Positions 2,667-62,560 of a stretch of DNA of 64,000 nucleotides are shown piece after piece. Location of the stretch: assembly GCA_964016885.1 (NCBI GenBank), contig OZ024741.1, positions 39,680,001 through 39,744,000 on the forward strand, in the 5' to 3' direction. Below the pieces are notes generated by a model. The model did not search any database. It had not been told where the DNA came from and saw nothing but the letters and a program-made list of their open reading frames with translations. The stretch comes from Eledone cirrhosa (lineage: Eukaryota). How positions within the stretch are numbered: position 1 is the first letter of the stretch; each line of letters starts with the position of its first letter. The position numbers and the translations under genes were made by a program.

Positions 2667-2695
<29 letters not shown>

Positions 2696-2697
<2 letters not shown>

Positions 2698-2915
2698 TAA
2701 AATAAGAGATTAAAGTTTAAGCCAAGAATCGCTGCTTTCACCCTTAACGGGATCTTCTGCAGATCCCGTTAAGGGTGAAAGCAGCGATTCTTTGCTTAAA
2801 CTATAATCTGTTATCTTAATAAATATTTGCTCTACGGTTCTTATTTATTTGATATATATTTATCCTTATCGAGCCCTCTTTGGATTTTAGTCTTCGCATT
2901 TATTATTATTACTAT
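2696..2915 (+). mobile_element. Fold-back PLE-like element, family A (HHR-bearing)
   Basis: Palindrome around tcttctg|cagatccc, followed by a ~95-nt unpaired tail (aaatatttgctctacgg...attattacta); (TA)n on both sides. Confidence 0.8.
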
Positions 2916-9558: not shown

Positions 9559-9619
9559 TATTTTATCTGACGAAAGCGTACTTAAATATTAGTACCTTTG
9601 AAATACGTATAATAAAATA
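9559..9619 (+). ncRNA. Type I hammerhead (family K)
   Basis: tattttat-CTGACGA-aagcgtact-loop-agtaccttt-GAAA-TACGTA-TA-ataaaata; 8-bp stem I and palindromic stem III. Confidence 0.8.
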
Positions 9620-12968: not shown

Positions 12969-13057
12969 CTTTTCTTACTATATCGTCATTGTAGTATGGC
13001 GTTTGATTTGTTATTTTTGTTTAGTGTTAACATATATATATAAATATATATATATAT

Positions 13058-13132
13058 ATTAAAATAACAGATTAAAGTTTAAGCAAAGAATCGCTGCTTT
13101 CACCCGTAACAAAGTTAGTTTCAGAAGATCCC
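13058..13132. mobile_element. Family A fragment
   Basis: ttaaaataacagattaaagtttaagcaaagaatcgctgctttcaccc..agtttcagaagatccc. Confidence 0.75.
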
Positions 13133-14886: not shown

Positions 14887-14918
<32 letters not shown>

Positions 14919-14926
14919 TAAAATAA

Positions 14927-15000
14927 CAGATTAAAGTTTAAGCAAAGAATCGCTGCTTTCACCCTTAACGGGATCTTCTGAAACTAACAAAGTCAATCTG
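14927..15000 (-). ncRNA. Hammerhead variant (CAGAAGA core), family A
   Basis: Exact reverse complement of 15600-15673. Confidence 0.6.
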
Positions 15001-15599
15001 TAAACGCAGAAGTGGATATTTCAAAAAACGTTGCAACCGGAGGTAGACAGGAAGACGATACGTTGGTTCGTGGAAACGTTCGCTGGCAAAGAACGGGAAA
15101 AAACGAATATAATACGTCATTAATAGGAGCGGTGAAAAACAATTACGCGCAAAGACAGAACCATGTTTATGGTATAAAAGAGGTCGTAGACTAATGTTCT
15201 CTAAGTGGTTCATAGAGACGTTCTCTGGCAATGAACGAAAAAAACTAAGATAATACGTCATATGTGGTGCGTGGAGAACAATAGCACGCAAAGTCAAAAC
15301 CACGAAAATGGTATAGCAGAAGTCGTAGACTAAAATTCTAACTAGGAGACCGAATGATTCTCCGCTACAGAGTTAAGAACAAAGTAAATAAATACAATAC
15401 AGAAGTAATAGAAATAAATAAATGCATACACGCAAACAAATTCGTACATGCACATGCATACGCAAAACACTTACCATAGGTATACAATTATATTCGTTTT
15501 TTCCCGTTCTTTGCCAGCGAACGTTTCCACGAACCAAAGTATCGTCTTCCTGTCTTCCTCCGGTTGCAACGTTTTTTGAAATATCCAGTTCTGCGTTTA

Positions 15600-15673
15600 C
15601 AGATTGACTTTGTTAGTTTCAGAAGATCCCGTTAAGGGTGAAAGCAGCGATTCTTTGCTTAAACTTTAATCTG
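15600..15673 (+). ncRNA. Hammerhead variant (CAGAAGA core), family A
   Basis: cagattga..agttt-CAGAAGA-t-ccc-gttaa-ggg-t-GAA-AGCAG-cgattct-TTGCT-T-aaact-ttaatctg; all three stems pair; cleavage triplet CUU. Confidence 0.65.
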
Positions 15674-15778
15674 TTATTTTAATAAATATTTGCTCTACGG
15701 TTCTTATATATTTGATATATATTTATCCTTATCGAGCCCTCTTTGGATTTTCGTCTTCAAATTTATTATTATTACTAT

Positions 15779-15964
15779 CGGTGGATTGGCAGTATCGGTA
15801 GAGGGTCGGACGCCATGCTTTCCAGCATAGTTACGTCCCTTTACGATCTGAGTTCAAATCCCGCCGAGGTTGACTTTGCCTTTCATCCTTACGGGGTCGA
15901 TGAAATAAAGTACCAGTAACGCGCTGGGTAATTGCTGGCCTTGTGCCTAAAGTAGAAACAATTA
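15779..15964 (+). mobile_element. Meta-domain SINE, full length
   Basis: ggtggattggcagtatcggtagag..gagttcaaatcccgccgagg..gcctttcatccttacggggtcgat.. Confidence 0.9.
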
Positions 15965-22749: not shown

Positions 22750-22770
22750 GATGTATATATATATATATAT

Positions 22771-23000
22771 AGAAATAATAATAAATTTGAAGACTGAAAT
22801 CCAAAGAGGGCTCGATAAGGATAAATATATATCAAATATATAAGAACTGTAGAGCAAATATTTATTAAAATAACAGATTAAAGTTTAAGCAAAGAATCGC
22901 TGCTTTCACCCTTAACGGGATCTTCTGAAACTAGTTTCAGAAGATTCCGCTAAGGGTGAAAGCAGCGATTCTTTGCTTAAACTTTAATCTGTTATTTTAA
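22771..23000 (-). mobile_element. Family A fold-back element (axis 22932/22933; HHR on each strand)
   Basis: ...tcttctgaaact|agtttcagaaga...; tail on the left. Confidence 0.85.
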
Positions 23001-23096
23001 TATATATATATATATACACATGCGTGTGTATGTGTTTGTATGCATAAGTACATAAGTATATATATGGATATACATATATATATATGTATATATGTG

Positions 23097-23465: not shown

Positions 23466-23530
<65 letters not shown>

Positions 23531-23537
<7 letters not shown>

Positions 23538-23765
23538 TAACAGATTAAAGTTTAAGCAAAGAATCGCTGCTTTCACCCTTAGCGGAATCTTCTGAAACTA
23601 GTTTCAGAAGATCTCGTTAAGGGTGAAAGCACTGATTCTTTGCTTAAAATTTTATCTGTTATTTTAATAAATATTTGCTCTACGGTTCTTATATATTTGA
23701 TATTTTGATATATATTTATCCTTATCGAGCCCTCTTTGGATTTTAGTCTTCAAATTTATTATTAT

Positions 23766-23770
<5 letters not shown>
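23531..23770 (+). mobile_element. Family A fold-back element (axis 23599/23600)
   Basis: Inverted copy relative to 22771-23000. Confidence 0.85.
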
Positions 23771-23806
<36 letters not shown>

Positions 23807-58589: not shown

Positions 58590-59041
58590 ATATTGTTATA
58601 CTTTGGGAGGGTCGTGTTGCCAATAAGAAACACACGCACTAGTTGCTTTCACTTCAATTTATTATAAATTAAATTTATAAATTTACGAATTTATAAATTT
58701 CCGGTTGGTTGGTTGGTTCCACAACCAGACGATTGTTCATATATTGTCAAAGTTCTTTCGTCACACATTCTGTGACTTCTTCAGTTCTTTGTTTTTATGC
58801 CTTTCCTTTGTTCTGTCCTACGCCATCTTGTTTTTGTGTGTGTTGTGTGCTTAGTTTGCGCATGTGTTACATCCGGGTGTCTGTGTGTGTTTATATTTGT
58901 TTATTTACATGTTACTGGTTGGTTGTTTGTTCTATGTGTGCGTGTGTTTCTTATTGGCAACATGACCCTCCGAAAGTATAAAAATATCGGTTTCAACACA
59001 CGTTTTCAGATAAAGAATCTTGCTAAACAAATTCAGAAACG

Positions 59042-62429: not shown

Positions 62430-62560
62430 ATAGTAATAATAAATACAAAGACCTAAATCCGAAGAGAGCTCCATAAGGCATGTATATATAAACCCGTATG
62501 GACAATATATATTATAAGTATAGATTAAAGTTTAAGCAAAGAATTTCTGCTTTCACCCTA
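62430..62560 (-). mobile_element. Diverged family A copy
   Basis: agattaaagtttaagcaaagaatttctgctttcaccc plus diverged tail. Confidence 0.7.

Follow-up and report, generated by a model that had tools for sequence, protein, structure and literature searches.

A hammerhead with A at core position 4, present lineage-wide in a Penelope-like retrotransposon of Eledone cirrhosa and predicted to cleave

We analyzed a 64-kb window (64,000 nt) of the Eledone cirrhosa genome (contig OZ024741.1, positions 39,680,001 to 39,744,000), which is microsatellite-rich animal DNA. The heptamer CAGAAGA, the 5' core strand of a hammerhead motif with A in place of U at position 4 (U4A), occurs at 2759(-), 13122(+), 14980(-), 15620(+), 22927(-), 22938(+), 23594(-) and 23605(+). 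An initial annotation had stated that every arm of this family (family A) retaining the core reads CAGAAGA, and this was borne out for all eight arms with a 5' core strand in the window. Its claim that the stems are intact applies to 15600-15673, where the parts are as it described; whole hammerheads, however, are found only at 14980(-) and 15620(+). The arms at 22.9 and 23.6 kb are without the bulge and the distal stem I, the 2759 arm stops at a fold-back junction, and the 13122 arm is scrambled. The copies are listed here in window coordinates.

2690..2915: short fold-back copy, whose minus arm has CAGAAGA at 2759-2753 and is without the 5' strand of stem I
13052..13132: short, scrambled copy; its 5' core strand is at 13122
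14911..15487, minus strand: left inverted arm, with ~550 nt of 3' UTR and a second whole U4A hammerhead (core 14980-14974)
15064-15333, minus strand: 139-bp direct repeat in the left arm 14911..15487
15491..15778, plus strand: right arm of the 5'-truncated fold-back insertion 14911-15778, with ~170 nt of the 3' UTR end, the hammerhead and a long tail of ~117 nt
22769..23007: palindrome truncated at stem I, CAGAAGA in each arm at 22927 (minus) and 22938 (plus)
23525..23771: palindrome sharing the junction of 22769..23007, CAGAAGA in each arm at 23594 (minus) and 23605 (plus)
62431..62559, minus strand: remnant from an older lineage of this element, with the 3' half of the hammerhead and the tail; the core strand is lost

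The short end of the left arm abuts (TA)n, and the two-copy repeat at 15064-15333 belongs to the element's own 3' UTR, immediately upstream of the hammerhead. The two palindromes lie 700 nt apart and have in common both the junction and the variant arm (U.G in stem II, different loop); they are likely a local inverted duplication. The whole motif in the right arm has the following parts.

15600..15673, plus strand: type I hammerhead with U4A core, whole motif
15600-15605 with 15668-15673, plus strand: distal stem I
15606..15614, plus strand: U-rich internal loop of stem I, facing UU at 15666-15667
15615-15619 with 15661-15665, plus strand: proximal stem I, enclosing stems II and III (block 15615..15665)
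15620..15626, plus strand: core strand C3-A9, CAGAAGA, with A4 at 15621 and N7 at 15624
15627-15639, plus strand: stem II, U.U followed by 3 bp, with a 5-nt loop
15640-15642, plus strand: GAA
15643-15659, plus strand: stem III, 5 bp with a 7-nt loop
15660, plus strand: N17, which is U, giving the cleavage triplet C-U-U
15660/15661, plus strand: predicted cut, positioned by established hammerhead numbering
15667, plus strand: U1.7, which we take to be the position contacting loop II in Schistosoma-type hammerheads

The descriptor match and the anatomy agree on three helices that surround the core in the order of type I. In family A hammerheads C3, G5, A6, G8, A9, G12, A13, A14, the A15.1-U16.1 pair and H17 are all present, and the departure from the type I consensus is at U4 of the CUGA turn, where A4 stands instead. 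Rfam returned no hammerhead at gathering score in the window and none at E<=10 in 15500-15800. This miss is not attributable to U4A, since the canonical hammerheads of the window were missed by Rfam too. The expectation in the initial annotation that standard searches would overlook the motif is right for the 'cuganga' descriptor used by Craig et al. 2021 (PMC8557442), and the Rfam result is unrelated to it.

Through copies with long upstream homology we reached a unit of 3,243 nt that has a single ORF of 713 residues and carries the hammerhead at its 3' end (pseudo-LTR). Inspected by eye, the ORF contains YRDD (reverse transcriptase, RT) and IVY...YIG (C-terminal GIY-YIG endonuclease), as well as RWR, DKT, CNCRNRADC (CxCx5C linker), CDLC (CxxC) and CKH (CxH), and the motif order matches that of published Hydra proteins. 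[quoted passage not shown] Pfam and PDB sequence scans of the 713-residue ORF gave no useful match; its nearest database proteins are 56% and 47% identical. Seven metagenome loci hold relatives at 37-43% identity, of which four have in common a canonical hammerhead lying downstream of the ORF; in one further locus a canonical-core match falls inside the matched region. The protein search scored 68 copies in the genome at 95-100% identity, and 38 of them have an open frame of at least 710 residues with no stops. Further Hydra-like ORFs at 34-47% identity to family A were seen in the same genome (L069:3813-5476, L078:8855-10000, L079:2710-4484, L001:5-223 and L049:435-668).

Copies of the element lie in (TA)n targets, in tandem or as inverted, 5'-truncated fold-backs. 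Sixteen of 30 sampled arms end shortly after the hammerhead and 14 have the long tail; in tandem copies this tail begins the next unit. Inserted copies cross the cut site and end ~20-30 or ~117 nt past it. Among 100 family A copies listed in a search for starts at the cut site, 2 (3 with one ambiguous) start at +1 in a flat spread, scored by eye with 30 script-checked; in a canonical control family 7 of 100 listed do so, in a narrower window with TA microhomology and no clear spike. By its ORF motifs, targets and arrangement, we assign the element as an autonomous, active-looking Hydra-clade PLE. It shares with that clade the (TA)n targets, the tandem and inverted arrangement and the type I hammerhead at the 3' end (PMC8557442). 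Unlike the Hydra-clade hammerheads given there, those of family A have A4 and G15.2-C16.2, and their stem III is 5 bp long with a loop of 7 nt; the element is also longer (3.24 kb) than the published Hydra elements, and its hammerhead differs from that of Hydra-1_Obim.

To tabulate position 4, as the initial annotation had proposed, we searched the 3.0-Gb assembly for exact matches to a 31-base pattern in which position 4 was left open, with the reversed pattern as control. The search returned 18,083 matches, against 0 for the control. The genome-wide state is A4 (17,900 of 18,083), and the CUGAAGA consensus that the annotation had named as counter-evidence was not seen. The remaining 183 matches have another base. 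Among the 100 of these non-A matches that were listed, the bases were 40 T, 37 G and 23 C by a by-eye count, as expected from decay after insertion; from the matches listed, U4 makes up ~0.4% of family A and is no commoner than G. A4 is also present in 55 of 55 arms that were reached via the protein and anchored on their flanks. Five C4 copies are clustered within 210 kb (G000:C3:139294071-139501845), probably as a segmental duplication of one mutated copy. In contigs of four sequencing runs, two of which contain the hammerhead in just one low-depth contig each, no change at position 4 was seen among the rows listed. A-to-I editing of A4 was considered and set aside, as it would not restore U.

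Two pattern searches were made for a U4 sister lineage of family A. A CTGA pattern gave 981 matches, mostly fold-back junctions, and the 5' stem I strand of the family was absent from all 30 that were fetched. With a second pattern 309 matches came up; the 30 fetched from these comprised 2 unrelated sequences and 28 junction products or point mutants of family A, 8 of which retain the 5' stem I strand. Among the matches fetched (30 per genome search) there was thus no U4 sister lineage, so that the U4A change is undatable and compensating changes cannot be linked to it. A second A4 family was also sought and rejected: of 1,172 matches, against 125 for the control, the 20 fetched were chance matches, junctions and single mutants of abundant families, and the main abundant family behind those single mutants has U4 in 8 of 8 unselected copies. 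Fold-back junctions inside the core strand recreate CTGAAGA without stem I at roughly 900 places in the genome (examples L111-L140; in the window 2753-2767), and a motif search would wrongly call these the canonical form of the family.

Other hammerheads of the genome were compared with family A. The fetched loci gave 56 descriptor matches that were classed outside the family: 52 with U4, 1 with C4 and 3 with A4, these three being decayed copies of the family A lineage. A minimal-hammerhead family that seemed to be A4 (2 of 10 copies) proved to have U4 in 96 of 100 copies listed. The CUU triplet, which the initial annotation had named together with the non-canonical core, occurs alongside canonical U4 in two other families of the genome. 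A canonical hammerhead is reported as universal in the Hydra clade (PMC8557442), and in File S2 of that paper all 26 Hydra and Repbase hammerhead rows have CUGANGA with C15.2-G16.2; U.U closing stem II and U17 (or A17) are frequent, and CUU is in 0 of the 26 rows. Since U.U and U17 are common in the Hydra clade and CUU occurs in U4 families, U4A is the only unusual feature, and it is lineage-specific.

The window itself holds several of these other families. At 9567(+), 18529(-) and 60839(+) is an abundant canonical hammerhead family whose stem II is long and whose stem III is palindromic and made of A and T only. Another abundant family (2988, 30158, 30457, 48428 and 52226, all plus strand) has U.U in stem II, a long stem III loop, fold-back insertions and U4 in 8 of 8 unselected intact copies, and is probably one more Hydra-like element. 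Additional families are represented by hammerhead-like motifs, mostly with CUGA, at 58784(-), 56223(+), 9958(+), 12935(+), 13687(-), 22744(-) and 9106(-); the 58784 family has the CUU triplet with U4, and 9106 reads CCGACGA (C4). Elsewhere, satellite-like tandem and inverted arrays (L062:2405-8502) contain two hammerhead-bearing repeats, with 12 and 8 descriptor matches and units of ~490 and ~310 nt.

Older lineages of the element, whose protein fragments are 62-78% identical to the young family, bear on the age of U4A. A pattern that fixed most of the core found 64 older copies, with A4 in 61 and U4 in none. To avoid circularity, we also assembled an unbiased old set using anchors that flank the motif and lie outside the core, stems II and III and the proximal stem I; all 37 matches were kept. 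Of the 35 copies in this set that align without gaps at position 4, 34 carry A4, and U4 occurs in none. A column was scored as changed if at least 20% of copies have a non-family base. By this measure, changes affect 0 of 11 core columns and 1 of 27 columns in stems and closing pairs (a C-to-T change permitting a wobble pair), as compared to the single N7 column (1/1), 4 of 5 in loop II, 2 of 7 in loop III and 3 of 11 in the internal loop. In the 22 old copies with homologous upstream UTR, 26 of 70 UTR columns are changed and the sequence is 30% different. Constrained columns (1/38) differ from free columns (N7, loops and internal loop; 10/24) with Fisher p=1.5e-4, and the core differs from the upstream UTR with p=0.014, both values being a guide only, since the columns are not independent and no covariation is seen.

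The core of the 37 old copies has 11 differences in 398 cells, and N7 is the only variable column of CAGANGA. U1.7 is invariant (37/37), and the last base of loop II is A in 31 of 37, whereas the other loop II bases are variable. The distal stem I and stem III are kept in old and young lineages, while loop II varies in both sequence and length. No compensatory stem changes were found across lineages, and the helices are invariant only. We read this as U4A having been fixed before the older lineages split, with the rest of the core, unchanged while N7, the loops and the UTR drifted, constrained afterwards. The initial annotation had suggested a recent amplification with the variant; this agrees with the young copies, which are 95-99% alike, but U4A itself is older, being present in lineages with 30% UTR divergence. 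The pattern of a fixed core with free N7 and loops argues against a decaying relic. The persistence of A4, on the other hand, is one column and is not significant alone, as ~37% of UTR columns changed; A4 may thus have been tolerated rather than favored, and the absence of reversion does not show that A is preferred.

A natural viroid hammerhead with a substitution at position 4, U4C (Ambros and Flores 1998), reportedly self-cleaves. This viroid variant is a pyrimidine swap, whereas family A has a purine, fixed in a retrotransposon lineage. The U4C case is cited in PMC4075628 and PMC3907566, and the first of these describes an MS2 phage selection against cleavage in which none of 46 point or single-base escape mutants was at U4. 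From these escape mutants and the cited natural C4, U4 would seem to rank with the more tolerant positions of the core. Nevertheless, when one hammerhead was mutagenized pairwise, all single CUGA-turn mutants except the C3-G8 swap had low activity (PMC9901934); no activity figure for U4A was found in the passages or supplements consulted. Perreault et al. 2011 (PMC3088659) describe natural core variants (C3U/G8A, A6C, insertions and U15.1-A16.1), some active and some inactive. Family A resembles these in having a rare natural core change, with some activity kept in that study, and the U10.1-U11.1 mismatch is called tolerated there; those variants are mostly single examples, in contrast to the 18,000 copies of family A. 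No U4A is among the variants in the sections of that paper that were consulted, and no CAGANGA string in the supplements searched, where gapped alignments could hide one. Cervera and De la Pena 2014 (PMC4209133) report minimal hammerheads in PLE pseudo-LTRs, with low in vitro activity, and a family-wide core variant, U3-A8, in Schistosoma. Their minimal hammerheads have no stem III and likely act as dimers, unlike family A, and their U3-A8 change is compensatory; for U4A no compensating partner is known. Our literature search found no report of a U4A hammerhead or of family A, although other papers, such as Lunse et al. 2017, reportedly on variants of PLE hammerheads, and Ruffner et al. 1990, may contain U4A data.

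The closest functional comparison is PAc, an Anolis element of the Poseidon type (Frangieh et al. 2024, PMC11167929). Its reverse transcription starts from two internal sites that define a 'tail', its hammerhead mutants insert normally in vitro with uncut RNA as the main template, and its cleavage was demonstrated and requires protein. PAc and family A are alike in having two copy ends downstream of the hammerhead and AT-rich targets; PAc differs in its canonical core and in belonging to another PLE clade.

Our preferred reading, which we hold at about an even balance of probability, is that this is a pseudo-LTR hammerhead in which U4A was fixed before the older branches split, and which likely cleaves after U17, at a rate that is probably below that of a CUGA core. 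Reverse transcription would start downstream of the cut site. As both end classes of the copies lie downstream of that site, complete 3' ends would, by the logic of PAc, be copied from uncut RNA only; and because the template must be uncut, a slowed ribozyme would cost little or might even help. Residual cleavage would split tandem or read-through transcripts into units, perhaps with protein assistance as in the anole element, and such residual or assisted cleavage could keep the other core bases under selection. In the predicted folds A4 would pair with U11.1, extending an off-state helix of five pairs, formed by the stem I/C3-A4 strand with U11.1-A15.1, over G12 and hiding it. This helix has a predicted probability of 0.40 at 37 C and 0.23 at 15 C in the A4 copy, and of 0.00-0.08 at 37 C in six natural U4, C4 and G4 copies. 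The argument from the helix is a weak one, since every copy, with or without A4, has a predicted minimum other than the active fold (-9.3 for the active fold vs -15.3 to -17.7 kcal/mol), and non-A4 copies have other inactive folds.

The strongest rival, unlikely though with a substantial share of the probability, is that the motif has lost all or nearly all of its catalysis and persists as a folded RNA signal, bound by the element's RT just upstream of the start of copying. The low activity of the CUGA-turn mutants (PMC9901934) fits this, as do the cleavage-independent insertion of the anole PLE in vitro (PMC11167929) and the success of Naiads, which thrive without canonical hammerheads. Family A also combines several weakening features (U4A, U.U closing a 3-bp stem II, the CUU triplet and an A/U-rich stem I), and its core bases also form structural pairs that a fold-binding protein could conserve. 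However, core columns that stay unchanged across 30% UTR divergence while N7 is free are the pattern of a working hammerhead, and nothing in this analysis supports protein binding.

A more speculative proposal, to which we give a small probability, is that the U4A hammerhead does cleave and that A4 was retained as a tuner, or as a switch between an off-fold, in which the A4-U11.1 helix hides G12, and a protein-triggered on-fold, controlling the cutting of the element's own template.

It is improbable, in our estimate, that A4 is compensated by its context in the family (the long stem I with its U-rich internal loop, U1.7 and a stable stem III), giving near-canonical speed. Such compensation would fit the conservation, in young as in old lineages, of the distal stem I, U1.7 and stem III; tertiary contacts can raise rates about 1000-fold (PMC11014351), and most published Hydra hammerheads have a shorter stem III. 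Yet loop II, the expected tertiary partner, varies between lineages, and we found no literature report of a fast U4A hammerhead. The many copies made through the cut site also count against fast cleavage of the template, although canonical families are likewise copied through. Finally, it is very improbable that A4 was a chance change hitch-hiking in one recent master copy with a simply decaying motif: a single master can spread any neutral change, as the likeness of young copies would allow, but older lineages that differ at N7, in loops II and III, in the internal loop and in the UTR all have A4 with an otherwise unchanged core, and their distinct loops argue against recent recombination of old copies with a young hammerhead.

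Taken from sequence, family A is a real, lineage-wide core variant within a known type of element, in which U4A is the unusual feature and cleavage is predicted. U4 has been treated as an invariant hammerhead base and hard-coded in search descriptors. A lineage with A4 that kept the rest of its core through ~30% UTR divergence and now counts at least 18,000 copies amounts to a natural experiment, and the same genome also carries natural U4, C4 and G4 copies on the same background. It addresses two questions, namely how variable the hammerhead core can be and whether Penelope-like elements need ribozyme cutting. If the tuning or switch reading were true, natural hammerheads would not strictly require the CUGA turn, and searches with 'cuganga' would be overlooking entire families.
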